From the NCBI GenBank assembly GCA_963776275.1, contig CAVZMI010000023.1:96001-160000 (forward strand): 64,000 nt of DNA, written 5' to 3'. The translations under genes were made by a program, and so were the position numbers. Shown in pieces: positions 25,169 through 55,940 of this stretch (positions are counted from its first letter, which is position 1; the number at the start of each line of letters is the position of its first letter). The stretch is from Ignavibacteriota bacterium (lineage in GTDB: Bacteria > Bacteroidota > Ignavibacteria > UBA10030 > CAVZMI01). Below the pieces are notes generated by a model that was given only the letters and a program-made list of their open reading frames with translations, ran no database searches and was not told the DNA's origin.

Positions 25169-25870
25169 CTTGTAAATGGTGAATTGTGAGTTGTGAATAG
25201 TGAATGGTTTTGGCTATTTCGATAGCCAGGTGGCCGAGCCTGTGGTGCCCTAAAGGACGACTTCGTCGAGCGAACCCTGAACGTAGTGAAGGGTGAGTCG
25301 AACCACTTGTGGTGAGCTTGTCGAACCATTCTTAACAGCCACCCTTCGATCCGCCTCCGGCGGACTCAGGGCAAGCCCTTCGATGAACTCAGGGCTAGTA
25401 TCGAGGCCACTTGTAAATGGTGAATTGTGAGTTGTGAATAGTGAATGGTTTTGGCTATTTCGATAGCCAGGTGGCCGAGTTAAATTGCCATACAAACAGC
25501 CATATCGAGGCCACTTGTAAATGGTGAATTGTGAGTTGTGAGTGGTGAATGGTTTTGGCTATTTCGATAGCCAGGTGGCCGAGCCTGTGGTGCCCTAAAG
25601 GACGACTTCGTCGAGCGAACCCTGAACGTAGTGAAGGGTGAGTCGAACCACTTGTGGTGAGCTTGTCGAACCATTCTTAACAGCCACCCTTCGATCCGCC
25701 TCCGGCGGACTCAGGGCCAGCCCTTCGATCCGCCTCCGGCGGACTCAGGGCCAGCCCTTCGATCCGCCTCCGGCGGACTCAGGGCCAGCCCTTCGATCCG
25801 CCTCCGGCGGACTCAGGGCTAGTATCGAGGCCACTTGTAAATGGTGAATTGTGAGTTGTGAATGGTGAAT
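25166..25870. repeat. Composite repeat block: four copies of the tRNA 3' flank with GTGAATT-type heptamers, interleaved with REP-like palindromes, including a 4x 34-bp tandem at 25687-25822
   Basis: ccacttgtaaatggtgaattgtgagttgtga at about 25166, 25407, 25511 and 25831; cccttcgatccgcctccggcggactcagggc at 25687, 25721, 25755 and 25789. Confidence 0.92.
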
Positions 25871-25966
25871 GATAAATTTGCTATTCACTTTTCTATGTAC
25901 GTCTTCAGACTAAATCAGACCATTTAGGCAAGATATTAATAAACACCTATCAATAGTTCCGCCATG

Positions 25967-26050
25967 CGACAGCTCTCGTTCGGGCTGCCGTTTGATTATT
26001 AATAAATTATTTCTTACCATTCAGTTGTACCTACAAGAAATATCCGACCA
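25967..26050 (+). repeat. Repeat A copy 1 of 8 (others at 28501, 31502, 35036, 36204, 37263, 46926, 48550)
   Basis: cg(g/a)cagctc..gggctgccgtttgattat hairpin followed by ...caattgt...aagatacatccgac consensus. Confidence 0.85.
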
Positions 26051-26283
26051 AAATGCTGCAATAAAATTATAGATCGACACGCAATTTCAATCAATAGCCT
26101 CTGAAGGATTTAGTACACATTATTTGTGAAATCCAAGGGCGTTGTATACGGATAAAAAACAAGAGCACCGTATGGTATGAGGATCAGTATAATTATATTT
26201 GGGCGGCCCAAACCTCATGATGTATTTCGCCCGCCCATGGAAGAAGATTGAATAATCTACGAGTCTTACATTAGGAGGATACC

Positions 26284-27558
26284 ATGCCAGTAGTATTGCG
26301 GTTTCTCGGGGCAGTATTGGGCGCAATAGTGACGCTGTTTTTTGTTGGGCTGATGACGCCGTTGCTTGTATTGGCGACTCCTTTTTTAAATGCCATCCTT
26401 TTCCCGTTTATCTCAGGGTCGTTGGTTTTGATCTTTTTCAGCTACATCTTCACGTATGCCCTCAGGATTTCAGGTGAGGCTGATCAACCTTGGAGTCAGT
26501 CTGCGCAGATCTATGAAATTGTTTATCTGATAGTATGCACTTGCATCATTCTCCTTACAGTGAGATATATTATCATGGGTCTTCTGTTGAGTGGTTTATC
26601 CACCCTGTTCATCGTCACAATTTTTATATTAATCGGTGCATTAGCATCAATCTTATTCATCGCTCTATATGCGATACCGGTCCTTCTGGGATATATCTTC
26701 GCGGCAATTTTTGCACCCGTTCATGGGGGAATTGAGGATTCGAGGGAATGTTTCTGGCGCGGCGCGTTAATAGGGGGGAATACGGTAATGAATGTTGTGC
26801 TTAGTCTTATTTTCTATGGCTGGCTATTCTCGCCCTACTTAAATAATCCAGTCTCGTTTATAGCAGGAATACCTGCTGTTGTTATAGTGGCCGCAGGAAT
26901 ATTTATCATAATACTCGCGAACTGTCTGACATTGATCCCATCGACGCAGTTTTACCTTCCGGCATCGATCAGAGGTAATGTGCAGGACTTTGTCAAGGCG
27001 TATGCCGGATATGTGTCCTGGTTAATGCCGATGTCATGGGGATACTGTATATTGGGTTGTATACTCTTCTATTTCAGTTGGATCGGTCACCTGATAGCAA
27101 TAATAGTATTAAACAATAGTAACGCAAATTGGTTAATTACTGCTGTACAATATTGGGGAATATCTCGTTTGCTAATAGATCCCCAAACCGGCACGATGGT
27201 CACGGAGAACGGCGGTTGCAGTAATTTTTCATCCCCTGGTTCACCATCTTACCCTTACAGTTGCGGTTGTTTCGCCTTTATTCCAGACAATTTCTCGAGT
27301 CGGTGCTATATAGACAATGCGATACCCCGGCAGCACGAATCCGGTCATGCCCTGAACCTGGCTGCCTTTGGTTCGGTCTATAACATGATTAACGCAATCA
27401 ATGAAGAAGGATTGGATATATTGGGGATTCACGGTTTAGGGCAAAACATTCATGCATACGGCGACCGCACGGCACAAAGTAATGTAGATGACGACTTAAT
27501 CCTAAATGCTTGGGACCCACAAAATAAACACCACCCGGAGGTAGAGATATGGCGATAA
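26284..27558 (+). CDS. Polytopic membrane protein with C-terminal HExxH motif (putative zinc metallopeptidase)
   Basis: AGGAGG RBS; many hydrophobic helices; QHESGHALNLAAFG. Confidence 0.65.
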   Translation: MPVVLRFLGAVLGAIVTLFFVGLMTPLLVLATPFLNAILFPFISGSLVLIFFSYIFTYALRISGEADQPWSQSAQIYEIVYLIVCTCIILLTVRYIIMGLLLSGLSTLFIVTIFILIGALASILFIALYAIPVLLGYIFAAIFAPVHGGIEDSRECFWRGALIGGNTVMNVVLSLIFYGWLFSPYLNNPVSFIAGIPAVVIVAAGIFIIILANCLTLIPSTQFYLPASIRGNVQDFVKAYAGYVSWLMPMSWGYCILGCILFYFSWIGHLIAIIVLNNSNANWLITAVQYWGISRLLIDPQTGTMVTENGGCSNFSSPGSPSYPYSCGCFAFIPDNFSSRCYIDNAIPRQHESGHALNLAAFGSVYNMINAINEEGLDILGIHGLGQNIHAYGDRTAQSNVDDDLILNAWDPQNKHHPEVEIWR

Positions 27559-28328
27559 CAGATGATCTTAAGCAAGACAAGAGTACAGGCGCACGTAAAG
27601 GCGGCCTGTCCACACTACTAGTGATCGCAGCTGCGATCTTTTTCGGACTGATCATCGTGGCGGCTGTGCTCATGCTGCTGCGGCAGGGCAACCCGACCCT
27701 ATTAAATCAGCAGACGATATTTGCACTCCCTGCACTTCCGTCGTTCAACGGTGGAACATTGTTACTCGTGCTCTTGACGATGATCCTTCTCGTTTTCGTG
27801 GGCATCTTTACTTTGCTTCTAATGCTGGTAATTTGTGTTTGCGGCTGCGGCTGCGGGAAGAGACTCCTGGAAATCCTCAAGAAGTTAGGGCTACTTCTAC
27901 CTGACTTGCCTAAGGGTCTGCGAGCGGCCGCGCTTGGGTTCGATGTTGCCGCCCAGGCTGCTCACATTTCCGCGGAATGTCTTGCCGCTATTGGAAACAA
28001 TCTGAGCACGGTCGTAATAAAAACTAACGAATTCCATTTTCCTATTATCCAAATGAACACCATGAAATTATGGGATGCTTTACGTGATCTTAATATCCCG
28101 GGGTTTCCCCCTATTCCACCCCCGCATTGGCATGATCCTGATGTAATTACCTTTAAGCAAGACATAGATACATATCCCTTTTCTAGCTCGGGATCGTTGT
28201 CCACGCCATTGGGTGACATCGCGACCAGAGTTAATATGGCGCGTATTCAGTCCGAGAATTTGGAAACCAAACTAGTCTTAGCAAGAGACGGTTTGAACGC
28301 AGTAGCGCATGTCTTCGATGGCCAGTAG
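27549..28328 (+). CDS. Hypothetical membrane protein with Cys-rich CVCGCGCG motif
   Basis: Overlaps upstream gene by 10 nt; two TM segments. Confidence 0.65.
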   Translation: MAITDDLKQDKSTGARKGGLSTLLVIAAAIFFGLIIVAAVLMLLRQGNPTLLNQQTIFALPALPSFNGGTLLLVLLTMILLVFVGIFTLLLMLVICVCGCGCGKRLLEILKKLGLLLPDLPKGLRAAALGFDVAAQAAHISAECLAAIGNNLSTVVIKTNEFHFPIIQMNTMKLWDALRDLNIPGFPPIPPPHWHDPDVITFKQDIDTYPFSSSGSLSTPLGDIATRVNMARIQSENLETKLVLARDGLNAVAHVFDGQ

Positions 28329-28407
28329 AATAACCATTATTTCTTGCATGGTAGAGAATAAAGGTACGGGCGCGCCGTACCGGTAATAGCGCGCTAATGA
28401 GATAAAG

Positions 28408-28446
28408 AAAAAGCCCTGCATTGCTTGTTGGATGTTGGGCTTTTTT
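28408..28446 (+). terminator. Intrinsic terminator
   Basis: aaaaagccc...gggctttttt stem-loop with T tract. Confidence 0.65.
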
Positions 28447-28637
28447 GTAACCAGGCTAGCATTCACTCTAACAATTATATGAACGCCTCCGCCACCCATT
28501 ACGGCAGCGCTAGTTTTGGCTGCCATTGATTATTACTCAATTTTTCCGTACCATTTCCTGTACCCTTCAAAAGCTCCCGACTTCTTTTTGTGCCGGATAA
28601 GCTAATCATTGAATATTATCTAATCGAGGTATCTTTT

Positions 28638-29516
28638 ATGAAAAAGCCGCTCTTTTCGATTCTCGTTGTGATCATGAATGTCATGTTAATTTCATCACTC
28701 GTTTTTGCCGACGGCGAGACGCGTAAAGCTACTCAGAAGGAAAAAGATTTTTACAGGATGGTGATGGAGACTCTCATCAAAGCATTGCCTGCCGCCGGAC
28801 CCGAAGGATGGCGTGAAGAGAAGAACCAGTTTGCGGAACTCGAATTGGTCACACCAGACTGCGAGAAATATCCGTTCCAGGTTAATTATGGTGCATCGTG
28901 AACCGATGACACCCGGAAGCAGGCAGCCGATGAAGAAATACAAAAAGACCTGGTATCCAAAATGATGAACAATACTTCAAATCCCGAATACATAAAGTTG
29001 ACTGAACAGACCAATATATTGGCTAAAGAGTTAGGTGATGCTGCTGGAAAGAACGATCAACCTACGGTCGAGCGGCTTCAGAAAGAACTGGAGACGAACG
29101 CGAAAAATATACATGCCATCACGGACGCGAATGATAAGGAATCTGACGGCATTATGGAAAAGGCGAGTGCGCACGATGTAAGCATACAGGTCAGTATCCA
29201 GGTGAATGAATTTTCACACCCGCTGTATGAAACTGTGGTCAAGGAGGCACCCGTGGCAGGGGGTCTGACATATCGCTCGCAGGGAGTATGGATAAAGGAC
29301 AATGGATGGCGTGAAGGTACAACGTACGTATTTCTTGGAAAAGGATGGCAGATGAAAACCGATGGTGGAACTTCTATCGAGACTAAAGAACGAAAAGGAA
29401 TTCCTTCAACAGCAGTGCAAACAATTTTTGTTTGAGTCCAGGCAGATCCGGCGCGGGCAAAGCAGGTTCTCGAAAAGATAGATTGGAATGCGTTGAAGAA
29501 GCTGATTCAGAATTAA
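28638..29516 (+). pseudogene. Secreted hypothetical protein interrupted by two in-frame TGA codons (28899, 29433)
   Basis: ORFs 28590..28901 and 28962..29435 share a frame; protein-like sequence continues across both stops to TAA 29516; signal peptide MKKPLFSILVV. Confidence 0.75.
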
Positions 29517-29544
29517 TGGAATTATCTTTAATATAATAAGGAAT

Positions 29545-30359
29545 ATGATCATGAAAAAATTAATGCTTCTTGTCGCACTGTTATTAATATGTTCAATCCC
29601 ATTGCTTGCCCAGGATGCCGAAGGATGTAAAGATCATCCTTTTTTTAGCAGGATGCCGAATTTCTATATTGAATCTTGCAATCAAAATTTTGATAAACTC
29701 GAATATTATGTTTCCGATGGAGTTACAGATACCAAAGAAGGAGATTTAACCAAAATTTCCTATAATTTTCCGGATGATGCCCCAACTAAAGCTCCCAGTC
29801 CATTACAAATTATTAGAAATTATGAAAATGCAATTATTAAATTGGGGGGAAAAAAATATATGTTAATGATCATGATTTAACTTATTCATTAAAAAAGAAT
29901 TCAAAAGAATATATTATCTGTGTAGCAATGAATGGGAATATACAGCATAACCTTAGTGTATTGGAAATTGCACTAATGAAACAAGAAATTACTGCCAATG
30001 AAATGCTTGATGCACTGAATAAAGACGGTTATATAGCGCTGAATATTCTTTTCGAAACAGGCAAATCTACTATTCAAAATGAATCACTTCCAGTAGTAGA
30101 CCAAATATTCGAATTGATGAAAAGTGATTTAACACTTAAAATCAGTATCGAAGGCCATACCGATAATGTGGGCGATGCTGTAAGCAATAAAAAACTCTCT
30201 AATGATCGGGCAAAATCTGTTATGGACGCTCTTATTGCCAAAGGAGTTGACAAGACAAGAATGTCGTTTGTTGGCTGGGGACAAGAAAAACCTGTTGCCG
30301 ATAACAGAAGCGAAGAAGGCAGAGCCAAAAACAGGCGCGTAGAAATAGTTAAAAAATAA
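29545..30359 (+). CDS. OmpA-family peptidoglycan-binding protein with DUF4892-like N-terminus; frameshift in G/A homopolymers near 29843-29856
   Basis: DAEGCKDHPFFSRMP; IEGHTDNVG, LSNDRA, NRRVEIV. Confidence 0.88.
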
Positions 30360-30529
30360 ATCCACAACCGGCATTTTAAAAAATCAACCGGAAGGCAAGG
30401 ATTTCAGAAGGTATAAAAGTCGCATCAATAATCCCGCGGTTCATCCCGTTGTGAGGCGTTAGCTTCGCAACTAAGGGCAGTATTCAGATCCTGAGTCCCT
30501 CTTCATCACAAAAGAAATGGAGTTGAATT

Positions 30530-31405
30530 ATGAAATTGAGAGTTCTTTATCTCTTCATTATTTTTTCTATAATTTCAATTGTGGGTTGGAATTGGAAGAA
30601 AGATTCACCAACAAACGAAGGGAATTCGACACAAGGCAATTTAGTGCCTGTGGCAGGCGGTACATTTACTGCCGGCTCAACTCCCGTCGCAATCAGCAGT
30701 TTTAAGATAGATAAGTATGAAGTGACTTATGAGCTTTGGACAGAGGTGAGAAACTGGGGTTTGGCTCACGGATATACAGATCTTCCTGCCGGACAAAATG
30801 GAGGCAGCTATCCTTCTGGCAACCCCGCTATCAGATCGAACAACCCTGTTACACAGGTGAATTGGTATGATGTTGTAAAGTGGTGTAATGCCCGTTCGGA
30901 AAAAGACGGCTTCACACCAGTATATTACATAGACAATAAACAAAGGACAATATATCGCACCGGAGGAATAGAACTTAATATAGATGCAGTAAAGTGGACA
31001 GCCAGCGGTTATCGGTTACCGACGGAATGCGAGTGGGAGTATGCGGCACGCGGAGGGAACCAAACACATGGCTACATGTATAGCGGCAGTAATGATTTAG
31101 ACGAAGTTGCGTGTCATTTTGACAACTCTGATACTAGCACTCATCCTGTCGGTCAAAAAAAAGCAGACGAACTTGGTATATATGATATGAGCGGAAATGT
31201 CAATGAATGGTGTTGGGACTGGTTCGGTAAAGCATACCCATCGGGAGGCATTACCGATCCGAAGGGTACAAAAGAATTCCCCATTCGGGTGATGCGTGGG
31301 GGTTCATTCGACCTCTACTCGCTCTTCTATCAGGTAGACTTCCGCGACTCCCACTACGCGTGGGCTCGCGGCTTCAACATCGGGTTTCGTTGTGTCAAAA
31401 ACTAA
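30530..31405 (+). CDS. FGE-sulfatase (SUMF1) domain protein
   Basis: KYEVTY, NNPVTQVNWYD, YRLPTECEWEYAARGG, YDMSGNVNEWCWD, IGFRCV. Confidence 0.93.
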   Translation: MKLRVLYLFIIFSIISIVGWNWKKDSPTNEGNSTQGNLVPVAGGTFTAGSTPVAISSFKIDKYEVTYELWTEVRNWGLAHGYTDLPAGQNGGSYPSGNPAIRSNNPVTQVNWYDVVKWCNARSEKDGFTPVYYIDNKQRTIYRTGGIELNIDAVKWTASGYRLPTECEWEYAARGGNQTHGYMYSGSNDLDEVACHFDNSDTSTHPVGQKKADELGIYDMSGNVNEWCWDWFGKAYPSGGITDPKGTKEFPIRVMRGGSFDLYSLFYQVDFRDSHYAWARGFNIGFRCVKN

Positions 31406-31501
31406 ATCTGCACATCTGTTTTTTTACCCTTGTATATCTTCGGATCGATTTACACCATTCAGGTTTCAATTTAACAGAGAATTATCAAGGATCTCACTCT
31501 G

Positions 31502-31638
31502 CGGCAGCTCCTGTTAGGGCTGCCGTTTGATTATTAGTATCTGATTGCTTACTTTCAATTGTTCACCCAAAGATACATCCGACAACCGGTGTTAGATTGA
31601 GTTATAAATATTCAAGCGATATATTAATCAAAACTAAT
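31502..31638 (+). repeat. Repeat A copy 3
   Basis: Near-identical to the 35036 and 48550 copies. Confidence 0.9.
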
Positions 31639-31741
31639 TTGAGCGCGTGTCGCTAACGATGGCTGAGTTGCCAACGACGGTTGGGCAATTCGGGCTAAGT
31701 GAAATCCAATCGGCCCCAGGACTCTTAAAGGAGTTTTAACA

Positions 31742-32220
31742 ATGAAGAATTTGTATACTACTATAATCGTGTTGCTCTTATGCGTCCTTCTCTTATCTTG
31801 CAAGAAAGACGAGAGCAATCCCACCCAAAACCCTGCAACGGGTACTGTTCAAGGTACAATAACTTATACTGGTGCCGGTGCACCAAGCGCATCTAAACTT
31901 TTGGTTGTAGGAATCTATCCCTTCAGCAACACCAACATGCAAGGTCGCCAGATGGTTCAACAATTCAATTTAGTAGTTCGTCAACATCACCATTTTCGTA
32001 CTCTTTTGCCGTGCCACCAGGAGACTACCATCTTAGTACCGCGTTTGATGCGAATGGTGATGGTAGTTTTAATTCAGGCAATACAGATCCATATTTGATT
32101 TACACGCCTACCAACTCAACAGGAACCGGAACATTTGGTACAGCTGCTGCTAAACTCACTATTATTGCAGGTCAGACTTTTACTGCAAATGTTTCATTCG
32201 GAGATACGTACAAGAAATGA
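31742..32220 (+). CDS. Small lipoprotein; one frameshift near 31946
   Basis: LLSC lipobox; shifted frame reads PPDGSTIQFSSSSTSPFSYSFAVPPGDYHL into ORF 32011..32220. Confidence 0.7.
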
Positions 32221-32258
32221 AATTTAGGAACGAATGTCCACAGCGGTCATTTAGTAAT

Positions 32259-32551
32259 TGACCTGCCCCCAAAGTGATCAAAAGTATATTATGGATCATA
32301 GGGGGCAGCAATTGGTAGTCCGATCCCACAAATGTGGGATCGAGATTTTACCCCGAGTTAATCGAGGGGCTCGTACCGACTTCCCTCGACCCGCCTTCGG
32401 CGGGCTCGGGACAGGTCGTCGGGACGGACTTATTTATCCGCCGTCCTAAAGTCGAAGATCCTGAGCCTGTCGAAGGGGACTGCTATGCTGAGGTTAACCG
32501 CTCTATCCGCTGGAGTGTTATTTACGTAGACGGAGCGCCCATTCGTTATGT
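32259..32551 (+). repeat. IS3-type left-end stub fused to an attC right arm carrying two nested palindromic inserts
   Basis: tgacctgccccc...; ag[32319-32428]ctta[32433-32534]gcgcccattcGTTATGT. Confidence 0.75.
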
Positions 32552-32592
32552 TGCAATTGCCTGTCATGATTCGAAAAACGAGGAGAAAAATC

Positions 32593-33933
32593 ATGAAAGC
32601 TCTTTTCATAACACTTCTGCTCGCTGTTGTGGTGGGCGTGTGCGATGCACAGTGGTTTCAGCAAAACAGCGGGACAACAGCAGATTTGTTTTCCGTTGCT
32701 TTCAGCGACTCTAACCATGGGGTGGTTGTTGGTGATTCAGGGTTAATCCTTCAAACCACTAATGGCGGATTAAACTGGATGCGGCGGCAGAGCCGGAGGT
32801 CTTTGGCGCTAACCTCTGTCTACTTTCTTAATCCGAGCAATGGTTGGGTTGTGGGCTATGCTGGCGATTCCGTTTTATATACATCGGATGGTGGAATCAA
32901 TTGGGTACCAAGAGGTTTGGCTAGTGGTAACTACTTGAGGTCGGTCTATTTTGTAAATCAGAATATCGGATGTGCTGGGGGCATGCAGTATGTGTTGTGG
33001 GGGAACAGGCCGTGTGTCAGCTATACTACTGACGGAGGATTTCACTGGACTAGGGCGGCATGGGATTCTACGGACTTGGGCGGTGGATTCGTTTCATCTA
33101 TTCACTTCTCAGACGAATCTCACGGCTGGCTTGTAAGAAATGAAGATGATCTGTTATATGACTCTTCAAACTTCCTTCCCCAAGTTGCTAGGACTACTGA
33201 CGGGGGTCGCTCTTGGATGTGTGTTCAACTGGGGAATGTGCACATAACTTCAATGGAGATTGTGGGGCTTAACAACATCTGGCTTGTGGGATCCACTAGC
33301 GACAGTGCGAGATATATTCTGCATTCGACAAACGCGGGTAACTCTTGGAATGCCTTAATAGGAAGGATGCGAAGTTCTCTTCAATCTGTGTGCTTCGTTG
33401 ATACAGTCAACGGCTGGGCGATTGGTCGGAATTATGATACCAGTGTAATTCATCAATCTGACACTAGTGTGATTCTAAGGACGACAAACGGCGGAATTGA
33501 TTGGAAGGAGCAATATCGAATGCCTGTTAGTCTATCGGACGCAGGGTTCCGTTCTATTTCATTTGTCGATGTGAACAACGGTTGGGTAGTTGGAAGCAAT
33601 GGCGTAATCCTTCATACGACTAATGGCGGTCTCACGTTTGTTGAATCATCAACGACAGGTGAGGTGCCAGAGACATACGCACTCAAGCAAAACTACCCGA
33701 ACCCTTTTAATCCAGCGACAAATATTTCTTTTAGTCTTCCATCAAAATTTTTTGTTACGTTGAAGGTATTTGATATTATGGGAAGAGAAGTAGCGACCAT
33801 TGTTGCCGAAGATTTATTGGCAGGAAGTTACTTGCGGCAATGGAATGCAGCAAATATGTCGAGTGGAATTTATTTCTATCGTTTACACGCTGGTTCATTT
33901 ACGGAAACTAAAAAACTAGTTTTACTCAGATAA
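32593..33933 (+). CDS. YCF48-like/BNR-repeat beta-propeller protein with T9SS sorting domain (gene cassette)
   Basis: Repeated TTNGGxxW; QNYPNPFNP tail; AGGAG RBS; bracketed by a perfect 15-bp inverted pair at 32545 and 33936-33950. Confidence 0.9.
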   Translation: MKALFITLLLAVVVGVCDAQWFQQNSGTTADLFSVAFSDSNHGVVVGDSGLILQTTNGGLNWMRRQSRRSLALTSVYFLNPSNGWVVGYAGDSVLYTSDGGINWVPRGLASGNYLRSVYFVNQNIGCAGGMQYVLWGNRPCVSYTTDGGFHWTRAAWDSTDLGGGFVSSIHFSDESHGWLVRNEDDLLYDSSNFLPQVARTTDGGRSWMCVQLGNVHITSMEIVGLNNIWLVGSTSDSARYILHSTNAGNSWNALIGRMRSSLQSVCFVDTVNGWAIGRNYDTSVIHQSDTSVILRTTNGGIDWKEQYRMPVSLSDAGFRSISFVDVNNGWVVGSNGVILHTTNGGLTFVESSTTGEVPETYALKQNYPNPFNPATNISFSLPSKFFVTLKVFDIMGREVATIVAEDLLAGSYLRQWNAANMSSGIYFYRLHAGSFTETKKLVLLR

Positions 33934-33950
33934 AACAATTGCAACATAAC

Positions 33951-46397: not shown

Positions 46398-46428
46398 GGA
46401 CTAGCGATTATTATTGAAAGGAGACAGT

Positions 46429-46925: not shown

Positions 46926-47235
46926 CGGCAGCTCTAGTTATTAGTTATTATGGTTGCCGTTTGATTATTAGTAGCTGTTTGCTTACTTTCAATTGTTCCT
47001 ACGAAATACATCCGACAACCAGCGTTGTAGTGAGTCATAGATAGAGATTCAGATATTCGAGCAAGATATTAATCACAACTAATCATTGCCGCAGTCCGAT
47101 CCCGCTTATGCGGGATCGAGATCTCGTCCCGACTTCCCTCGACCCGCCTTCGGCGGGCTCGGGACAGGTCGTCGGGACGGACTTATTTATCCGCCGGAGT
47201 GTTATTTACGTAGGCGGAGCGGCCATCCGTTAGGC
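46926..47235 (+). repeat. Repeat A copy 7 plus attC right arm with two nested inserts
   Basis: gccgcag[47095-47181]ctta[47186-47218]gcggccatccGTTAGGC. Confidence 0.85.
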
Positions 47236-47262
47236 GGCCAACCTAAAACGAGGATTCAAACA

Positions 47263-47838: not shown

Positions 47839-47877
47839 TGGATTGCCGCACGTTAACACTATCCAGAAGGTGCCATA

Positions 47878-48405
47878 ATGGATATTTATGAAGAGCAGGA
47901 ATGCCAAGATAGTATATTCAAAATAAATTCATTATTGAATTGTAGCATTTTCGATGTTGTTAATTCTGGCAATATATTACAATCCGCTGCTTTCATTGAG
48001 TTAATAATATGTCTTCGTGACCTTCTGCATAAGACGGAAAAGTACGCGAAGCGCATCTCGTTTACCGACGACATCATAATGAATGAATATGTTCATGATA
48101 TAACCGATGCTGTCACTGCTACTCGGGATGCTTGTTGCCATCTCGATTCTTTCAAGCGGGTATTTGATGACCAGGGAAATAGAGGATCTTTTAACGTTAT
48201 CTATGGCAAAGGCTATTTCGCTAAGTTTGGTGATGTGGAAATGAAGTCCGAGTATGAGGACGATACTGCTGTCTATTACGGTAAGAATCGTCTTTATATC
48301 AAACGTCACATTGTTCGGGCCTTTAGAGAAGCTACAACTCTTCTCATGCCGATTCTTACAGGAAAGGATATTAATAATGGCACACCTGCTGACTGCTCAA
48401 TCTGA
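47878..48405 (+). CDS. Hypothetical protein with HEPN-like Rx4H motif
   Basis: Helical N-terminus; RDACCH. Confidence 0.55.
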   Translation: MDIYEEQECQDSIFKINSLLNCSIFDVVNSGNILQSAAFIELIICLRDLLHKTEKYAKRISFTDDIIMNEYVHDITDAVTATRDACCHLDSFKRVFDDQGNRGSFNVIYGKGYFAKFGDVEMKSEYEDDTAVYYGKNRLYIKRHIVRAFREATTLLMPILTGKDINNGTPADCSI

Positions 48406-48549
48406 CAAGTGTAAACTGCAGGTCCTCATAAATCTGGTTCCATCACTTTAATCCATACATCGAGGCTCCAGAGTTGCTTCTACTTCGATCTAAAGCCGGG
48501 CGGCATCGGACATTTTTTGTTGGGAAAAAAGCGGATTTATGGGCAAAAG

Positions 48550-48725
48550 GTTAGGGCTGCCGTTTGATTCTTAGCAGCTGATTGCTTACTTTCAATTGTT
48601 CACCCAAAGATACATCCGACAACCGGCGTTGTATTGAGTCATAGATAGAGATTCAGCTTTTTTGATCCAGATATTTGGGCGACGTGGTAATCAAACTGAT
48701 CAAGGCGACATCTTAGCCGAAATCC
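48550..48725 (+). repeat. Repeat A copy 8 (left half of hairpin replaced by repeat C tail)
   Basis: gttagggctgccgtttgattcttagcagctgattgcttactttcaattgttcacccaaagatacatccgacaacc. Confidence 0.85.
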
Positions 48726-48900
48726 CTCTTACTGCACATTAGAGCAAGATATTATATTTTCAAAAAGTGCAAAAGGGTAGTTAGTAGAAATTGCATAAAT
48801 GATATATACGCTAAATATAATTTCTCTTTTTTAGTGGTCATAATAAAGTTGTCTATTGGGGAGAAGAACTATTGTGAATATTTGAAGGAGGAACTGTATT

Positions 48901-50199
48901 ATGGAAACAATAACTGGGAAACTATTAACATATACTAAATGGATTGTAATCACTCTAATTGTACTAGCAATTATCATCACTGCATGGAACTTCTTTTTAA
49001 TAAAGGCAACATACGATTATATCTTTCAATATCTTGCTTCCAGTATTGGATTAAATATTTGGTTAATTAGGATAATATCAATTGCATTTAGTCTGTTGGT
49101 TCTTATTTATGGAATAAAATGGTTATGGAGAGTATTATCACCGTCACCGTTAATTAAGTCGAAAGAAAGAAATAATGCTCTTCTAGGCTTGAGTGCTTTA
49201 TTAATATTATTTTGCTTAATGATGTGGTTTTTTACAAAGAATGACATTTATAATAAAATTGGGGAAGCCCAAAAATGTTATGCGGCAACACCCGATGGTT
49301 ATGAATATGTTGATTGCAGTTATAAAGTTCACCCGATCTATGGAACAGAGGTAAAACATGTGACCCCTGAAATTGCGATTATTATTGAAGACAAAAGAAT
49401 ATCTGAAGTGACGAGAATCGTGCCTAATAGAAATTTTAGATTTTTCTCTCCAGATGGCCGATCACTAATTTATTACTATAAGCGTCCTAACGAGAAACTT
49501 GAGTTTTTCTTTCAACCTGGTAGGCATCCTCAATTTAATGAAGAGTTACTGCCCATTACTCCAGAGATTGTGAAACAACTGTTTGAATACTACGAAAATG
49601 GAAAAGACTCAATGATTATCGGGAATGATATTAAGGATAATATTTTGAAAGCTCAAAAAGAATTTGAAACGAAATATAATGAAAATAGTATTAAACAAGG
49701 GACACAAGTCGATATTTATGAATCTTACATTAACCCATCAATAACAAACTCTGGTACGAGTACAGATGTGTCTGTAACTATTGTTGATGAGAATGGTAAT
49801 AATATTGCTTCTGTTTCGAGTGCTATTGCTAATGTTTACAATCAGACTGGGAAAAAAGGGAATACAGGCTTGTTGAGAAGCTCATTTATTCATAAAGCAG
49901 GATTCCAAGAATTGTATGAAGGCAACTCTGATATAATTACAAAATTAAAATTAAGTAGCCACACTGATTATTTGGCAATTGGCAAAATTAAATACTCGAT
50001 GCGACAGGGAACATTGGTTGAAGGGACAATAATTTGTACCGTTTCCCTTGCCATGAACATAATATCAGTTAATAGCAAAACACTAACTAAGAGCTTTTCA
50101 TTTTCAGTTAATGGTAATGGGGCAACAGAATTCCAAGCGAAAGAAGAAGCGGATAAAATACTGGTGAACGTGTATTACAACGAATATTCATCATTATAA
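48901..50199 (+). CDS. Hypothetical membrane protein (3 N-terminal TM helices, large soluble domain)
   Basis: AAGGAGG RBS; 432 aa; AT-rich. Confidence 0.75.
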   Translation: METITGKLLTYTKWIVITLIVLAIIITAWNFFLIKATYDYIFQYLASSIGLNIWLIRIISIAFSLLVLIYGIKWLWRVLSPSPLIKSKERNNALLGLSALLILFCLMMWFFTKNDIYNKIGEAQKCYAATPDGYEYVDCSYKVHPIYGTEVKHVTPEIAIIIEDKRISEVTRIVPNRNFRFFSPDGRSLIYYYKRPNEKLEFFFQPGRHPQFNEELLPITPEIVKQLFEYYENGKDSMIIGNDIKDNILKAQKEFETKYNENSIKQGTQVDIYESYINPSITNSGTSTDVSVTIVDENGNNIASVSSAIANVYNQTGKKGNTGLLRSSFIHKAGFQELYEGNSDIITKLKLSSHTDYLAIGKIKYSMRQGTLVEGTIICTVSLAMNIISVNSKTLTKSFSFSVNGNGATEFQAKEEADKILVNVYYNEYSSL

Positions 50200-50210
50200 G
50201 GTTGAAGAAA

Positions 50211-51116
50211 ATGAAAATAACTATTCACTTATTTATTCTTTTATTTGTTGTTTCTATATCATTATCGCAAAGCGCATTTGATAAATCGATCAACGAGGCA
50301 AGTGCTGATCTTGCTGAAAAGTTAATACGAAAGAATAAAATGAAAATAGCGGTCGTTTGTGTCACCGAGATAAATAAAGAAGAAACAGTTGTTGGGAAAT
50401 ATATAGCCGATGAAATATCAGTAAACATCGTTAACGGTACCGGGGATTTTGAGGTTTTTGATAGAGAAAGTTTATCTGGAATCACACAAGTAAAAAAATT
50501 AGTTGCAGAAGGCTACATCAACGTTTATAAGGCAAAAGAATTAGGGAAATTATTATCAGTCGAAGCAATTATTATTGGTAATTATACAGTAAAAAATAAT
50601 ACAATAAAGCTCACTTTATCAGCTTACAATTCATATTCTGGATTAGTAATTGCTTCGACCCACAAAGATTTACCTATAGACTCAGATGCCGGAGCATTAC
50701 TAGGTATTAACGTGGAAACAAATGGCAAAAGAAATAATTCTAATCGTGGATTCAATAATCGTCCAATAAATTCAAATGAAGATTATAATAATCCAAGAAC
50801 TGTCAGTCCCGACTGTAAAAAAAATAATACAGGAGATTACTGTTTTACAAATACTATGACGAAGACACCATTTACGGTAATAGTGTACTATCGCGAAAAT
50901 TCAAACGCAGGTCGTACAATGACAGTTCAAGCGGGTCAAACTCAATGTTTCAATAATTTCCCTGCTGGTCCGCATAATTATACTATTACCTATAAAGCAC
51001 AAGTCCCTATCATGAAGTTTCCCCCTGGTGCACCTACGATGGAACAAGATGTAATTTACTTACAAGGTCAAATAAATGTTGAGCAATGCAAATCTAAAAC
51101 ATTTGTTATAAAATGA
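50211..51116 (+). CDS. Secreted FlgO/CsgG-like domain protein
   Basis: KIAVV...GKYIADEIS...FEVFDRESL...AKELGKLLSVEAIIIGNY. Confidence 0.7.
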   Translation: MKITIHLFILLFVVSISLSQSAFDKSINEASADLAEKLIRKNKMKIAVVCVTEINKEETVVGKYIADEISVNIVNGTGDFEVFDRESLSGITQVKKLVAEGYINVYKAKELGKLLSVEAIIIGNYTVKNNTIKLTLSAYNSYSGLVIASTHKDLPIDSDAGALLGINVETNGKRNNSNRGFNNRPINSNEDYNNPRTVSPDCKKNNTGDYCFTNTMTKTPFTVIVYYRENSNAGRTMTVQAGQTQCFNNFPAGPHNYTITYKAQVPIMKFPPGAPTMEQDVIYLQGQINVEQCKSKTFVIK

Positions 51117-51345
51117 AGTTCGCAATCTCGCCTATCCATAAAGATAAAGCTAGTATATAATTAAAAAGAGCATAAAAGAAATAAATCAAGCAGAGATTGC
51201 GATCATGTTGAAAAGTTGAGATGTAACGCGAGATTGAATGTACAGTGAATATATTTGTCCCGGATAGTACAAGCCAAGAAATTATCGTCGCCGCAGCTTA
51301 GCGCCCATCCGTTATACGGCATTTGTAAAGAAATAGCATTTAAAT

Positions 51346-52821
51346 ATGTCTAAGAAAAATAAAAACCGAAAAAATAAGGGAGGTCGTAGGAACTATTCAA
51401 CACTCCAACAGCATACAAAAGCTGGCAAGAAACTCCTGCCTCCTTTTCTTCAAATTCCCAAATTACAACTCGGTTCTTGGCGAGATGATAGACTTCCAGA
51501 AATGATGTGGGCTGCTTTGATTGTTGGTAATCTAGATAGGGAACAGGCACTGGATACTTTCAGAGCAGTAGCAAATTATATCTCAAGTTTAAAGCAACCA
51601 GCAATTTTGGATGATATAACCCATACTACGCTTTCAAATGTTCCTACAGATATTCTTAAGGGCTTTATAAATGTATTAATCTGGCGACCAGATCAAGCGC
51701 GGATTTTAAGAAGTCTATTATTACTTGAAAATCTTCCTGCTTACACAACGTGGAAAGAACTTCTTCCAGACGATGGTTCACCAATCGATTTTATTCCATT
51801 AATGAATGCAGTTGCTAAAACTCTTGATCATCAATCACAAGAAGCCACTGATTGTAGGTGGATGCGAGTTATTGCTATGATGGCAAGTGGTCTCTTTCAG
51901 CTTCCATCTGAAGAAATGGCTAAGGAATTTGCCTATTATCCTAATGAAGGTGATATGAGAAAGGTTCGTCCATCTATTCGTGCAACGGAAGGAGCATTAT
52001 CGAGTATGGATGAGACTAAACGCGAATGGGCAACTAAGTTTTGGATGGAATGTTGGCAAAAGTCAAATTGTTTCCCTCTAAGAATTGCCAGTGACGACAA
52101 TCCTTCACTAAGTGGAACAACAGAGGATAAGGTAAAAATCGTTTATCAAGAATTAATCAAGCATTTTATGGCAACAAATATTACTACTGCAATTGATATA
52201 AAACACGATGTAGTATTTGGTATAGCTTTTTATTCATTATCTATTTTAAAAGAACTGTTACGCATAGGATCAACTCGTTCCATTCTTGCTCGTTCTGGTT
52301 TGCGTACACTTTTAGAATTATATGTAACCCTTAAGTATCTTGTCAATAAGAATGATCTTGAGTTGTGGAAATCCTTTCGTGTCTTTGGTGCAGGTCAGGC
52401 AAAACTTACTTTTCTAAAACTAGACGAAGATCCCAGTAAGCCGAGTTCAATTAACCTTGATACACTTAATGCGCTTGCGAATGAAGATGTTTGGCAGGAA
52501 TTTTTGCCAATAAATCTTGGCCATTGGGAAAATTCAAATCTTCGAAAAATTAGCATTGAAGCTGGAGTTAAAGATGATTATGACAGGTATTATTCTTGGA
52601 CATCATCATATTCACATGGCCATTGGGGTCCAATAAGAGAAACTGTGTTTGATATTTGTGGAAATCCACTTCACCGTCTTCATCGTATTCCTTTAATTTC
52701 GGCAAAACCTTTGCCTGATGTTATTTCCGATGCGTGTTATTTTTCAGATAAAATTCTCGATATTTTAAATTTAGTCTATCCTAATTTTCAACATAAGGTG
52801 AGCATAACAAATGCCGTATAA
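51346..52821 (+). CDS. DUF5677-like domain protein (gene cassette)
   Basis: LRTLLELYVTLKYL...YSWTSSYSHG; bracketed by GTTATACGGCATTTGT (51311) and its exact reverse complement (52807-52822), which contains the stop codon. Confidence 0.7.
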   Translation: MSKKNKNRKNKGGRRNYSTLQQHTKAGKKLLPPFLQIPKLQLGSWRDDRLPEMMWAALIVGNLDREQALDTFRAVANYISSLKQPAILDDITHTTLSNVPTDILKGFINVLIWRPDQARILRSLLLLENLPAYTTWKELLPDDGSPIDFIPLMNAVAKTLDHQSQEATDCRWMRVIAMMASGLFQLPSEEMAKEFAYYPNEGDMRKVRPSIRATEGALSSMDETKREWATKFWMECWQKSNCFPLRIASDDNPSLSGTTEDKVKIVYQELIKHFMATNITTAIDIKHDVVFGIAFYSLSILKELLRIGSTRSILARSGLRTLLELYVTLKYLVNKNDLELWKSFRVFGAGQAKLTFLKLDEDPSKPSSINLDTLNALANEDVWQEFLPINLGHWENSNLRKISIEAGVKDDYDRYYSWTSSYSHGHWGPIRETVFDICGNPLHRLHRIPLISAKPLPDVISDACYFSDKILDILNLVYPNFQHKVSITNAV

Positions 52822-53012
52822 CCAGCGGCTCAAGCTTACCGGATGAGCGTGAGTACTTTACGCATGGCTTGTGGTGGGTTTCAGTTTTCATTATAACGTT
52901 CTTTATACATCATGACTTTTGTGTAATTAATTATGTTATCAGAATGAATCTGGTTTCGTTTAGTACAATTTGAAAGTTATCAGTGCCGCAGCTTAGCCGT
53001 CATCCTTTAGGC
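52816..53012 (+). other. Complete long attC recombination site (~197 bp)
   Basis: R'' gtataac; left arm cggctCaagct pairs with right arm agcttagccg leaving one extrahelical base; R' tttaggc (G to T relative to GTTAGGC). Confidence 0.82.
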
Positions 53013-53026
53013 GAACCCGGAGGATA

Positions 53027-53503
53027 TTGTACCATATGGATGAGTCATATTTCAACAAACAAGTAACACTAATTCGAACCATCGTCGGCGCTGTTCTGGC
53101 CCTTGCCTCGTTACTTTTCTTATGGAAAGGCATTTCTGGTATAGGTGAGATCGGATTGGATTTCCAATTCTTCAGTGGTAAATTCTCTACGACATCTGCT
53201 GGTTTTGCTTTATTATTTGCTGGAGTGATTCTTCTCTTACCACGTCGGCTTCCACAGGATGGTCGAACTAATGAACGACGTAGTCTTGGTCAAATGGCTA
53301 TCGGAATATTGTTCTATATTTTTATAGGTTTACTTCCAGTCATTGGCTGGATAGGCATTATAATTTATCTACACTATAATAGTCCTGATGATATAAAGAA
53401 TATCTCTGTGTTGGGAGCGTACGCTATAATGAGCGAGGTCCCACTTTTTTTCTGGGTAGTTCAGCAAGTGTCTAAACTTCTTCAAAGCGGGACAAAGAAA
53501 TAA
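53027..53503 (+). CDS. Hypothetical 4-TM membrane protein (cassette)
   Basis: Starts directly after attC with GGAGG RBS; followed by ctaac-type stub at about 53545-53565. Confidence 0.7.
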   Translation: MYHMDESYFNKQVTLIRTIVGAVLALASLLFLWKGISGIGEIGLDFQFFSGKFSTTSAGFALLFAGVILLLPRRLPQDGRTNERRSLGQMAIGILFYIFIGLLPVIGWIGIIIYLHYNSPDDIKNISVLGAYAIMSEVPLFFWVVQQVSKLLQSGTKK

Positions 53504-53578
53504 TAATTCTCAAAATTCAGTCGAACTGGAAACTAATAGTTGCAGTCTAACTAACAGGTGTTCAAGGGAGGCAAAGTC

Positions 53579-54025
53579 ATGGCAGGATATATCTGGCAAT
53601 GCTCGCACTGTAAGCTAAAAGCTTCGTTCCCTGAGATGCAAGCACAAAGAGGCATAGTTACGTTTATCTGGCGTACGCTACTGCCCTCGAATTGGGACCA
53701 CAATCTTCTTGTGCGTGACTGTCTCAAGTGTAAGAGACGAGAGATGAGAATCACATTTGAATTTCCACGACAGCAGGATCCAGAATTGTTACAAATCAAG
53801 CAGATTGTTGGCATCTCTCCCAATGGAGGTGACTATTTGCCAATGATGTGGGAGTCATTTCCAGTTGGTCATATTGATCAAAGCTGGTTTAGTTTCAACT
53901 ACGTCAGACTTGTTGACGGAAAAATGAATTCCTGGGGACTTAACAAAGCCGCAGTATTTGATAGAGATGAATTTCGTAAGATAGTACAGATTTATGAACA
54001 AAGCACTGGCCGCACATTCCAGTGA
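53579..54025 (+). CDS. Hypothetical zinc-finger protein
   Basis: GGAGG RBS; CSHC...CLKC. Confidence 0.65.
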   Translation: MAGYIWQCSHCKLKASFPEMQAQRGIVTFIWRTLLPSNWDHNLLVRDCLKCKRREMRITFEFPRQQDPELLQIKQIVGISPNGGDYLPMMWESFPVGHIDQSWFSFNYVRLVDGKMNSWGLNKAAVFDRDEFRKIVQIYEQSTGRTFQ

Positions 54026-54135
54026 TTTCTATGGTACACTAATTAGTTGCTCATGCTGACGAATGTGGACTGCTGGGTCGCTCATACTACATTAGCAAAA
54101 GTCAAATATATCATTATTTCATATAAGGAGAAAAG

Positions 54136-54624
54136 ATGAGAGCATTTATTAGTTATAGTACAAAAGATCTTGATCTGGTCAACCAGATAGCTAATAGAAT
54201 CAACGGCCTCATCCAAGGTGTGAAATATTGGGACAAATCTAAGGAACCTGGAGAGCATGCTTGGAATAAAATTCACAGTTGGATTGATGAAGCGGATATT
54301 GTTTTTGTGTTGATTACAGGAAACACGGTTGAACGAGGAATATCCGTTGGAATGGAAGTCGGCCGAGCAAAAAAGGCGGATAAGTTAATTATCCCCATCG
54401 TTTCGAAAGATATTCTAAATACAGAGTTAGGTTTCTTATCTGAGATCGCCTACCAGCCCATCGATCTCAAGAATCCCATAGTGGCATTGGATGAAATCGA
54501 AAAAGCGCTCAGAATGAGAGTTGTTGCGAATCAAATGTTAGAGGAACAGAAAAAAAATATTCAGAATATATTCGTAATTATAGCGATCTTATGTATCATT
54601 ATCGCAATACTATCAAAAGAGTAA
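54136..54624 (+). CDS. TIR domain protein with C-terminal TM helix
   Basis: AFISYSTKD, IDEADIVFVLIT, VGMEVGRA (catalytic-type Glu), IIPIV; hydrophobic tail. Confidence 0.82.
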   Translation: MRAFISYSTKDLDLVNQIANRINGLIQGVKYWDKSKEPGEHAWNKIHSWIDEADIVFVLITGNTVERGISVGMEVGRAKKADKLIIPIVSKDILNTELGFLSEIAYQPIDLKNPIVALDEIEKALRMRVVANQMLEEQKKNIQNIFVIIAILCIIIAILSKE

Positions 54625-54698
54625 TATTGCAAACCTTAACAAATCGTGAAACATTCTTAAGGAGAAAAAATGGGCTACTGGATATATGGTTTCTTTCT

Positions 54699-54779
54699 TG
54701 ACCAGCCCCAAAAGTGATCCAAAGTATGTTATGGATCAAAGGAGGTAGCGATGGGCAGTTAAGCGGCCATCCGTTAGGT
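54699..54779 (+). repeat. IS3 left-end stub fused to attC right arm (R' GTTAGGT at 54773)
   Basis: tgaccagccccaaaagtgatccaaagtat...atgggcagttaagcggccatccGTTAGGT. Confidence 0.75.
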
Positions 54780-54883
54780 GTTCAGATGGAATGTTATATT
54801 GAAGAAACACGCATCAAGGTTGTTATGAAGAAACGATATAAACACTAGTTAGACGGCAGCTGCCTGCAATACGAGGCTCACTT

Positions 54884-55810
54884 ATGATTCTTTATAAGTT
54901 TACATCTGCTCAACGTGGTATAGATATTCTTAGTAGTAATTCTATTCGTTTTTCTCAACTTGAGGTGCTTAATGATCCTTTCGAATCCTTCCCACCAGTT
55001 GAAGGTTTCATTACAAGAGAATTCGCATTTAAGATATTCGATTTCGCTTTGAGTAATGAAGATATGTTGAATAGCCTCATCGAGAAATCCCTTAAACGGA
55101 TGTATAACGACCTCTCTTATGCACAGAAAGCTCTCTTGGATTTCTACAATTATAAGATAATTGCTAAAAAGATTGTTGACGCTGAAATAGCAAAGAGGAA
55201 TACCACAATGGTAGACCTTCTTCGAACATTTCTTGAAACGAACTATGAGGCTTTTCTTTCAACAGTGAAACAACAGATTAATGTCTTATTAACAAAAAAC
55301 ATCTGTGTGCTAAGTCTTAGTACTGCAAAATCAAACCATCAAATGTGGTCACATTACGCAGATTCCCACAAAGGCATTGCTATCGGTTTTAATTCGAACG
55401 ATCCTTTTTTCTCTAAAGCCTTAGAAGTCCAATATCGAACCGAAAGACCAAAGATAAATCTCTTCCCAATTCCCGAAGAGGAACAAGAAAAACTAAAGCT
55501 TACAAAAGCCATTATGGCTACAAAGAATATAACTTGGCATTACGAAGAGGAATATAGACTTCTCAATGCAGCTGATTTGCTACAAAAAGATTCCGCGAAT
55601 GATCCGGATGGATTTCCGATCTTTGTGGCATCTTTTCCCGTCCAGTCTGTGCAGCATGTCATTTTCGGATGCAACACACCAGAAAATTATAGGAAAAAAG
55701 TGATCGAAATTGTCGTAGCCAAATACCCCGCCGCCAGATTAAGCGATGCTATCTTGGATACCCAGACTTTTCAAATCAATTTTAAGCCGTTAAATATGAC
55801 TGCGGATTAA
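54884..55810 (+). CDS. DUF2971 domain protein
   Basis: LYKF...LNDPFE, MWSHYADSHKGIAIGF, KNITWHYEEEYR. Confidence 0.88.
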   Translation: MILYKFTSAQRGIDILSSNSIRFSQLEVLNDPFESFPPVEGFITREFAFKIFDFALSNEDMLNSLIEKSLKRMYNDLSYAQKALLDFYNYKIIAKKIVDAEIAKRNTTMVDLLRTFLETNYEAFLSTVKQQINVLLTKNICVLSLSTAKSNHQMWSHYADSHKGIAIGFNSNDPFFSKALEVQYRTERPKINLFPIPEEEQEKLKLTKAIMATKNITWHYEEEYRLLNAADLLQKDSANDPDGFPIFVASFPVQSVQHVIFGCNTPENYRKKVIEIVVAKYPAARLSDAILDTQTFQINFKPLNMTAD

Positions 55811-55940
55811 CCAGTCGTTCCCCGCTTATAAGCATATCAGGGCAAACGTTGTATTAAACTCAGCTCTTCTTGACAATCTCACCGCCTCTTCGTACAATAC
55901 ACGCATGAATTCTTCTCATTAATCAGCAAGGAATCCGACA

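Follow-up and report, generated by a model that had tools for sequence, protein, structure and literature searches.

A variable locus between tRNA-Val and a restriction-modification gene

We analysed a stretch of 64,000 nucleotides of contig C23 (C23:96001-160000; hereafter the window) from an Ignavibacteriota bacterium, in which a variable locus of ~30 kb extends from tRNA-Val (25094-25169) to ~55.86 kb and is followed by the gene for a type IIG restriction-modification enzyme (55941-59024). An earlier note, made from the sequence alone, had described this locus as an integron-like array of gene cassettes that has no integrase and in which most of the recombination sites (attC) are reduced to halves. 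All features given below lie on the plus strand unless stated otherwise. The nearly uniform orientation of the genes on which the note had remarked was found again: 27 of the 28 longest non-overlapping open reading frames (ORFs; picked between 26284 and 55810) are on the plus strand and one (36289-37203) is on the minus strand, while further minus-strand ORFs of at least 100 aa all overlap longer plus-strand ORFs. Most of the 28 main ORFs have no Pfam family. Those to which a family could be assigned include: three secreted proteins with a type IX secretion system (T9SS) tail, an OmpA-like protein, an FGE-sulfatase protein, a SecD head fragment, and PD-(D/E)XK-like, DUF5677, TIR and DUF2971 proteins. 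Repeat families crowd the intergenic regions of the locus, and the part between 48.7 and 55.9 kb has a GC content of 0.364, as compared to 0.43-0.46 around it. A search with Rfam at gathering thresholds returned two tRNAs and nothing else, which is uninformative on attC either way because Rfam has no attC family.

Right arms of attC sites recur through the locus

The motif CAGCTTAGCNNCCATCCGTT has four matches in the window at three mismatches or fewer, against none in 100 shuffled sequences, and a profile hidden Markov model built from the genome's own copies located six arms (32525, 37390, 47208, 51291, 52986 and 54754; E 2e-6 to 0.04). A seventh arm, at 35180-35205 (given as 35198 in the earlier note), is a degenerate copy that has 17 of 25 bases in our own alignment. 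The recurrent right arm is real and constitutes the L'-spacer-R' arm of attC sites as found in integrons; the arm design can be written as CTAAC-2 to 5 nt-GCGGCT/ACT-extra base-6 bp ... 6 bp-AGCCGC/AGT-5 to 8 nt-GTTAGG. Three of the seven R' boxes conform exactly to GTTRRRY (GTTAGGC at 37408 and 47229, GTTAGGT at 54773) and the other four are one base off (GTTATGT, GTTATAC, TTTAGGC and ATTAGGT). The R'' and R' boxes form inverse core sites (RYYYAAC, GTTRRRY). GTATAAC, the R'' of the one full site, is likewise one base off, and the canonical GCCTAAC is present in other arrays of the genome. As read from the sequence, L' and R' are imperfect inverted repeats that lie 8 nt apart, like in the classical core site.

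The right arms fall into two subfamilies. Thirteen copies in the genome carry a 27-nt motif before AGCC, which in short sites finds its pairing partner in the 5' part of the centre. That the GGCGGAGCC form of the arm is a small mobile insert in L' was also considered and rejected, as the 27-nt motif sits inside right arms in 13 out of 13 cases; this form is an attC subfamily. Genome-wide the arm motif is not dispersed: its copies form same-strand arrays with a spacing of 0.5-3 kb, those outside the window being located on C30 (6), at C23:334-338 kb (3), on C4 (2-3), on C6 (2-3) and, as a single copy, on C25. The matching left arm, GCCTAAC-CA-GCGGCT-C-AAGCTG-ACCGGATGAGC, occurs 12 times in the genome and once in the window (52812).

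Cassettes with complementary ends

An integron cassette carries its own R'' and, past the crossover point G|TT, the other half of its R box, so that its two ends are expected to be complementary. Two cassettes in the window have such ends to perfection: 51311-51326 is the exact complement of 52807-52822 (16/16) and 32545-32559 that of 33936-33950 (15/15), whereas the best downstream complement over all 39 GTTRRRY sites of the window reaches 9-12/15. The two perfect pairs claimed in the earlier note were thereby borne out, and the ends are specific for each cassette, as in attC-bounded cassettes. The imperfect pairs that the note had added (37408/38100, 47229/47857, and 54848 or 54773/55811) did not rise above chance, the best ungapped complements being 10-11/15 and located elsewhere; these pairs rest on position (13-26 nt past the stop codon, or overlapping it) and on an ending in AAC-CA/AC only. 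In other arrays of the same genome, five cassettes showed an end complementarity of 11-13/14 (unrelated pattern hits: 3-6/14), and the first cassette of G025, a genome of the same order with an integron integrase, one of 13/13. Extended complementarity between start and end is a general property of the cassettes of this genome.

The cassette with 15/15 complementary ends (32546-33950) contains a BNR/T9SS-tail gene (32548-33933), terminates in R'' ACATAAC (33944-33950) and is found at 95% in the congener G001. It starts in an orphan right arm of subfamily 2 (32507-32551), composed of the 27-nt motif, AGCGCCCATTC and R' GTTATGT at 32545, with GC-rich hairpin modules upstream. The complete cassette with 16/16 complementary ends (51312-53005) contains a 491-aa DUF5677 protein gene that is DitA-like according to PADLOC (51346-52821; E 2e-78) and of which the TAA stop codon falls inside R'' (52819-52821). 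In front of this cassette lies a partial attC (51235-51317) that retains the centre's 3' part together with a right arm (R' GTTATAC at 51311) and has no left arm. A unit of three ORFs follows (53006-54772), encoding a membrane protein, a 155-aa protein and a TIR-domain protein (54136-54624); it has a right arm on each side and an R'' of its own that is doubtful. The last cassette (54774-55820) encodes a DUF2971 protein that matches the PADLOC defence candidate PDC-S31 (54884-55810; E 7e-37), and ends in R'' GATTAAC and the truncated left arm CAGTCGTTC. Two further units are cassette-like: 37409-38100, with a 227-aa ORF and the end GCCCAAC-CA, which is located elsewhere in the array of G001; and 47230-47857, with a PD-(D/E)XK-like ORF and the end CGTTAAC, after which the next gene begins 20 nt on, with no attC in between.

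The stretch 51346-59024 forms a defence-like cluster, in which the DitA-like, TIR and PDC-S31/DUF2971 genes reside in cassettes and the type IIG restriction-modification gene in the conserved flank. That integron cassettes encode phage defence has been reported, as far as the account in bioRxiv 10.1101/2024.07.02.601719 goes, and the occurrence of phage-defence-like genes in intact-looking cassettes beside a restriction-modification gene accords with such recent reports of cassettes that store defence systems.

One complete attC among half-sites

The claim that only one full attC survives was confirmed, as the window has one left arm (52812) and one full-length profile match (52813-52999), with the caveat that the R' of this site is TTTAGGC and not GTT-initiated, so that the conserved G of the crossover is lost in situ. 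The site (52816-53012, ~197 nt) consists of R'' GTATAAC, the spacer CA, L'' GCGGCT-C-AAGCTT, an AT-rich centre, L' CAGCTT-AGCCGT, the spacer CATCC and R' TTTAGGC, and its two L boxes pair. Paired L boxes with an extrahelical base were found at this one site of the window only; the other six or seven arms have no L''. Within the 3 kb upstream of the orphan arms at 35180, 37390, 51291 and 54754 a search recovered neither an L'' partner nor a long-range left arm, while the positive control was recovered.

Instead, the orphan arms are joined upstream to unrelated modules: module A (at 35031, 37262 and 46926) or the palindromic module C, which at 54698-54779 (CAGTTAAGCGGCCATCC followed by R' GTTAGGT at 54773) is fused to the right arm and at 32258 also precedes one, with GC-rich hairpins in between. 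At the other side, four cassette ends retain R'' (33944, 38094, 47851 and 55805) and then continue in other sequence: module D (two), the next gene directly (one) or a truncated left arm (one). The part that was lost is therefore the interior of the site (L'' and the centre) and not simply the left arm. The decay is visible in the arm counts: one left and six right arms in the window; 13 left (control 9) and 23 right (control 2) in the genome; and 116 left and 113 right (controls 13 and 3) in G025, which has an integron integrase (IntI).

Junction modules

Module A is a genus-specific junction module of ~140 nt, in which an 8-11-bp terminator-like hairpin with a GTTAGGG loop is followed by a conserved stretch with promoter-like hexamers. 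Copies are present at 25966-26092, 31501-31643, 35031-35179, 37262-37378, 46926-47089 and 48550-48648, partial copies at 28510 and 36207, and copies outside the window at C15:160567 and C20:156030. Among the 41 genomes of the same order that we compared, only this genome (10 matches) and G001 (7 matches) contain it. Five of the eight copies in this genome, including C15:160567 outside the window, run into a right arm at the same junction. Within the window, 35031-35205 joins the terminator-like hairpin and a conserved ~110 nt to a degenerate right arm with R' ATTAGGT at 35199; 37262-37414 continues through CAGCTTAGTGGCCATCC into R' GTTAGGC at 37408; and 46926-47235 contains module A, GC-rich hairpins and an orphan right arm of subfamily 2 with R' GTTAGGC at 47229. 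On the plus strand the module has a strong terminator-like hairpin and the hexamers TTGAGT-17-TATATT. It was also examined whether the module is itself an attC or a cassette without an ORF: a consistent fold is confined to its 5' hairpin, and the AACCAGCG stretch and the GTTAGGG loop are loosely attC-like.

Module B is an intergenic repeat of ~80 nt (GGTTCCATCAYTTTAATCCATACATC...GCCGGGCGGCATC) that follows four genes (38240-38314, 41096-41172, 44732-44808 and 48432-48508) and is also found at C20:154406-154490. Module D occurs twice. The first copy (33951-34070) comes after R''-CA and has the L''-like GCGTTCAACAAG and an internal stem; the second is followed by the first copy of module B (38101-38314). 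As a divergent attC, module D would have the L''-like box and the stem, and no recognisable R' was seen in it. GC-rich nested hairpins are abundant in the region and also within attC centres.

The sole minus-strand gene (36289-37203) encodes an IS200-like Y1 transposase of the type associated with repetitive extragenic palindromes (REP) and is located between two module-A hairpins (36207-36237 and 37265-37295) that are 84% alike. A second ORF for an IS200-like Y1 transposase of this type is present at 59327-59665 (+).

The sites are related to attC beside integron integrases

The integron integrase model of NCBIfam (TIGR02249; cut-off 265 bits) has matches above cut-off in 13 of the 41 same-order genomes (296-485 bits). 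Through the arrays of two of these, G035 (445 bits) and G025 (436 bits), the arms in the window belong to the same family as attC sites adjacent to an integron integrase. The integrase of G035 precedes, in divergent orientation, five repeats of ~165 nt with the sequence GCCTAAC-CAGTC-ACT-C-AAnCTG-A-(9-bp stem)...CAGnTT-AGT-TCCCGTCC-GTTAGGT. In the RNAalifold fold of these repeats an unpaired spacer separates the R box from the L box, the L'' side of which has two bases unpaired, and eight pairs carry compensatory changes. The L box covaries both within G035 (AACCTG/CAGGTT, AAGCTG/CAGCTT and AAACTG/CAGTTT) and across genomes (CACCTG/CAGGTG in G025 and AAGCTG/CAGCTT in this genome). Behind the integrase of G025 lie an attI-type GTTAGGT junction and then cassettes with CTAAC-AA-GCGGCT-G-CACCYG...CAGGTG-AGCCGC-GATCC-GTTAGG, and the sites of this genome have the same layout and near-identical arms (GCGGCT-C-AAGCTG / CAGCTT-AGCCGC-CATCC-GTTAGGC). 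With more than 110 attC sites and an integrase, spread over many small contigs, G025 has a large sedentary integron.

A covariance model trained exclusively on the five attC sites of G035 recovered the site C23:334210-334435 of this genome with 26.7 bits (E 4e-5), and this site and the full attC of the window are in the same nhmmer family. The reading as integron cassettes is thus well supported, since both the sequence and the architecture of the arms show homology to attC sites that neighbour integron integrases in relatives. For Ignavibacteriae and Chlorobi, complete integrons are on record, as far as the survey in PMC9024848 extends.

No integron integrase in the assembly

As the earlier note had stated, the window has no tyrosine recombinase: none of the seven PF00589 matches in the genome falls within it. 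Neither was any integron integrase over the TIGR02249 cut-off found in the assembly (38 contigs, 96.4% complete), nor, insert-less recombinases aside, any IntI fragment at E <= 0.001. The two best TIGR02249 matches of the genome (C22:9512-10336 and C23:235649-236584) are near-identical proteins that score 220-238 bits and for which the integron integrase model is the best NCBIfam match. They have 38-39% identity to the IntI of G002, a genome of the same family, and are without its IntI-specific insertion of ~40 residues; one of them is shorter at the C-terminus. We rejected these recombinases, at C22 and at 235.7 kb on C23, as the integrase of the array since nothing links them to it: their neighbours encode a methylase, a GNAT acetyltransferase, a GIY-YIG protein and an rve transposase, and attC is absent from their surroundings. 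Hence, the arrangement that defines a complete integron (an intI with the insertion beside attI and an array) was not found, and the array has no integron integrase nearby, as in the attC-site clusters without integron integrases that are called CALINs. The assembly is fragmented, with two of its arrays (C30 and C4) starting where a contig ends.

The locus differs between congeners

Gene content at the tRNA-Val locus differs between congeners, as the earlier note had led us to expect. G001 belongs to the same genus, with flanks that are 93-96% identical, tRNA-Val with the left flank and the restriction-modification gene being on separate contigs. Homology with G001 stops ~40 nt past tRNA-Val (CAC), the left edge of the variable region, and restarts at ~55862, in the promoter region of the restriction-modification gene (right edge, 55861-59024). 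In between, two blocks are common to both genomes (28526-34551 at 82-99% and 38092-40785 at 97.7%), the unit 37263-38314 sits elsewhere in the array of G001, 43587-44808 is found on the other of the two G001 contigs, and 25203-28526, 34551-37263 and nearly all of 44808-55854 have no counterpart. G001 lacks every cassette that has a good site, including all low-GC cassettes at 48.7-55.9 kb. The orphan arms 32525 and 37390 are kept at orthologous places, in blocks that are 95-98% identical.

Breakpoints with G001 were found within a hairpin of module A, at the 5' edge of an R'', 37 nt past a stop codon, and inside the T9SS tail of an 831-aa gene. Judged from these positions, homologous recombination between repeats had at least a part in shaping the locus. 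In the 831-aa gene, the C-terminal sorting domain of T9SS type (40785-40998, against L037 810-1032) is swapped between the two genomes, with the breakpoint inside the domain, and a stray T9SS-tail fragment is present in the spacer 34940-35010; T9SS tails seem to act as recombination substrates.

Elsewhere in G001 (C20:14950-34650) we found an array of at least 14 complete attC sites of ~130 nt, with no integron integrase in the assembly. In G002 the permease gene and tRNA-Val are present, and the 20 kb from the tRNA-Val locus contain no matches to the arms or to the array; G002 is uninformative on the borders because its homologues of the right flank are on another contig. Public reads (one run, a share of 0.06, as contigs) yielded short contigs in which the attC is matched, the context differing from one to another in several cases, and two contigs with full identity to 53067-53341 and 53875-54025. 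No joints were found in the contigs of this one run, which are too thin a sample to inform on excision or habitat.

Other features of the locus

Directly 3' of tRNA-Val (25170-25900) lie direct repeats that are not attC-like: four copies of an 81-nt unit, of which weaker copies occur at six other sites in the genome, and a run of 34-nt tandem repeats (CCCTTCGATCCGCCTCCGGCGGACTCAGGGCCAG). Upstream of the tRNA gene, two additional copies of its first 15 nt (24836-24850 and 24953-24967) each run into a long perfect hairpin instead of a tRNA body, and no tRNA call was seen there. The 414-aa ORF at 41467-42711 consists of SecD/F periplasmic P1 head domains alone, with no membrane core, and may represent a fragmented gene or a domain that stands alone as a protein.

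Interpretation

Taken together, the region is most probably a hypervariable locus that is built largely of integron gene cassettes with decayed recombination sites, that is, an old, degenerate CALIN-like array. The right arm would then represent one half (L'-spacer-R') of the sites of a long attC family (~120-260 nt) on which the integron integrases of the order act. The cassettes would have been inserted by IntI-type recombination at G|TT, which we infer because the cassette ends are cassette-specific complements, and the integrase would since have disappeared from the locus and the assembly. Deletion, the substitution of modules A, B, C and D and of GC-rich hairpins, and homologous recombination between repeats would since have removed L'' and the centre from most attC sites, leaving one complete, point-mutated attC. 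With its sites decayed the array is probably inert as an integron, its genes being fixed or changing block-wise only. The youngest part would be 48.7-55.9 kb, which has a low GC content, is not in the congener, and has the best sites and the phage-defence-like genes.

Several observations weigh against this interpretation. Much of 25.2-48.7 kb has no trace of attC and is organised by modules A and B, and since these are genus-specific and not attC-like in their fold, some of the region may never have consisted of cassettes. The minimum free energy structure of the full attC (bottom strand) keeps the L-box stem, yet its total energy equals that of shuffled sequences (z -0.16) because the centre (~130 nt) lacks structure and is rich in AT; on C6, a short site of subfamily 2 has a good fold (z -2.9 to -3.7). 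The covariance model of G035 scored the window's own sites weakly, at 7.4 (the full attC) and 11.2 bits (E 3.9 and 0.43); a match inside a gene, probably a chance one, scored no lower (11.6 bits). The same low scores (7-11 bits) indirectly support one expectation of the earlier note, namely that standard attC models would miss most of the array. As the breakpoints with G001 are not at G|TT, they provide no direct evidence of IntI-mediated exchange. The window contains one full attC, one partial attC (51235-51317) and five further right arms and, with a single full site in which R' is TTTAGGC, it may miss the usual CALIN threshold, which is two or more attC sites. Finally, the absence of intI cannot be proven in an assembly of 38 contigs and 96.4% completeness.

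The half-sites could also have been kept on purpose, the loss of L'' and the centre immobilising useful cassettes, with the L'-R' arm, fused to module A, acting as a module for junction and expression, or else as double-stranded DNA in which new cassettes can land. Such co-option could explain why five of the eight module-A copies meet the right arm at the same junction, the terminator-like hairpin and promoter-like hexamers of module A, the two orphan arms (32525 and 37390) at orthologous places in G001 and the resemblance of L'/R' to a classical core site, and degenerate CALINs have been proposed as a step to stabilisation, at least in the general terms of Cury et al. 2016 (PMC4889954). However, conservation of the arms does not exceed that of the sequence around them, which gives no sign of selection; ends with R'' only (four) are about as common as starts with L'R' only (five to six), which random loss of the interior would give as well; and orphan arms are also present in the part that G001 lacks. 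We therefore regard adaptive locking as unlikely, and its more specific form, in which orphan arms and module A constitute a "domestication junction" that insulates or expresses immobilised cassettes, or attI-like double-stranded landing sites for a trans-acting integrase, as more doubtful still. The causal part of the earlier note's claim, that cassettes were locked by the loss of left arms, is plausible at most: the loss is real, although it concerns L'' and the centre with R'' often kept, and the breakpoints with G001, at repeat modules and inside coding T9SS tails, fit neutral decay and homologous recombination equally well.

An array that is still active, and served in trans by an intI in an unassembled part of the genome, would fit the incompleteness of the assembly, the arrays on C30 and C4 that begin at contig ends, the position of intI in relatives (often at contig ends) and the low-GC cassettes of 48.7-55.9 kb that are missing from G001. 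Yet six of the seven junctions in the window have no left arm and the full site has lost the G of GTT, so that most cassettes would not be excisable even with IntI, and the assembly holds no IntI fragment apart from the insert-less recombinases; because most junctions cannot form the hairpin, we hold this to be improbable for the window. The least probable explanation, to which we attach very little weight, is one with no integron link, i.e. a tRNA-linked genomic island that arrived via a conventional integrase, or a field of REP or miniature inverted-repeat transposable element (MITE) repeats. The position of the region directly 3' of tRNA-Val, its variability between congeners, the IS200-like Y1 gene and the many GC-rich hairpins would agree with it. 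A tRNA-targeted island is unlikely because the 23-nt 3' end of the tRNA is present in one copy only in the window (at three mismatches or fewer) and there is no integrase, so that the marks of such an island are lacking; and the arms, in ordered same-strand arrays and matching attC beside intI in relatives, are not dispersed as are REPs and the repeats of REP-associated tyrosine transposases (RAYT), the GC-rich hairpins of the region being of a different kind from the arms.

Understood as a decayed cassette array, the locus details late integron decay outside the Proteobacteria, with a long lineage-specific attC, right arms that genome-wide are about twice as numerous as left arms, and modules in place of the halves that were lost. 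Such features may be of use in tuning attC models (size limits, half-site detection) for Ignavibacteria-like genomes.

Comparison with known systems

Sedentary chromosomal integrons, such as the superintegron of Vibrio cholerae with its V. cholerae repeats (VCR), have an active IntI and intact attC sites; they are characterised by a homogeneous, lineage-specific attC family and by many genes of unknown function, including defence genes. The array in the window is likewise chromosomal, has a homogeneous lineage-specific attC family and many genes without known function, defence genes among them, and differs from the V. cholerae superintegron in that it is fragmented, integrase-less and mixed with non-cassette modules. 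Fused or attC-less cassettes, in which neighbours are joined and the intervening attC is lost, are known from mobile integrons. The junction at 47857/47878 is similar, although such loss is the rule here and not the exception, and one half-site is usually kept. With the complete integrons of G025 and G035 the array shares the sequence and geometry of the attC arms, the complementary ends and single-gene cassettes of 0.5-2.7 kb; theirs, in contrast, lie beside intI and an attI-type GTTAGGT and have arms at ~1:1 (116/113 in G025), against one left and six right arms and no intI in the window.

The closest likeness is to CALINs, as far as the descriptions in PMC4889954 and PMC9024848 reach: unidirectional, mostly unknown-function genes, attC-type junctions, no integrase in the vicinity or elsewhere in the genome, and degenerate, heterogeneous attC sites. 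The differences from these descriptions are that here one site is complete, that the sites are unusually long (~200 nt), and that genus-specific modules take the place of the lost halves. A general version of the locking or stabilisation idea for degenerate CALINs is already found in Cury et al. 2016 (PMC4889954), and the locus offers a concrete test of this published idea, in its general outline, of degenerate CALINs as a route from mobile cassette to fixed gene. The system is a degenerate, integrase-less cassette array of an already known type, in which only the pattern of half-sites and the genus-specific junction modules are unusual.

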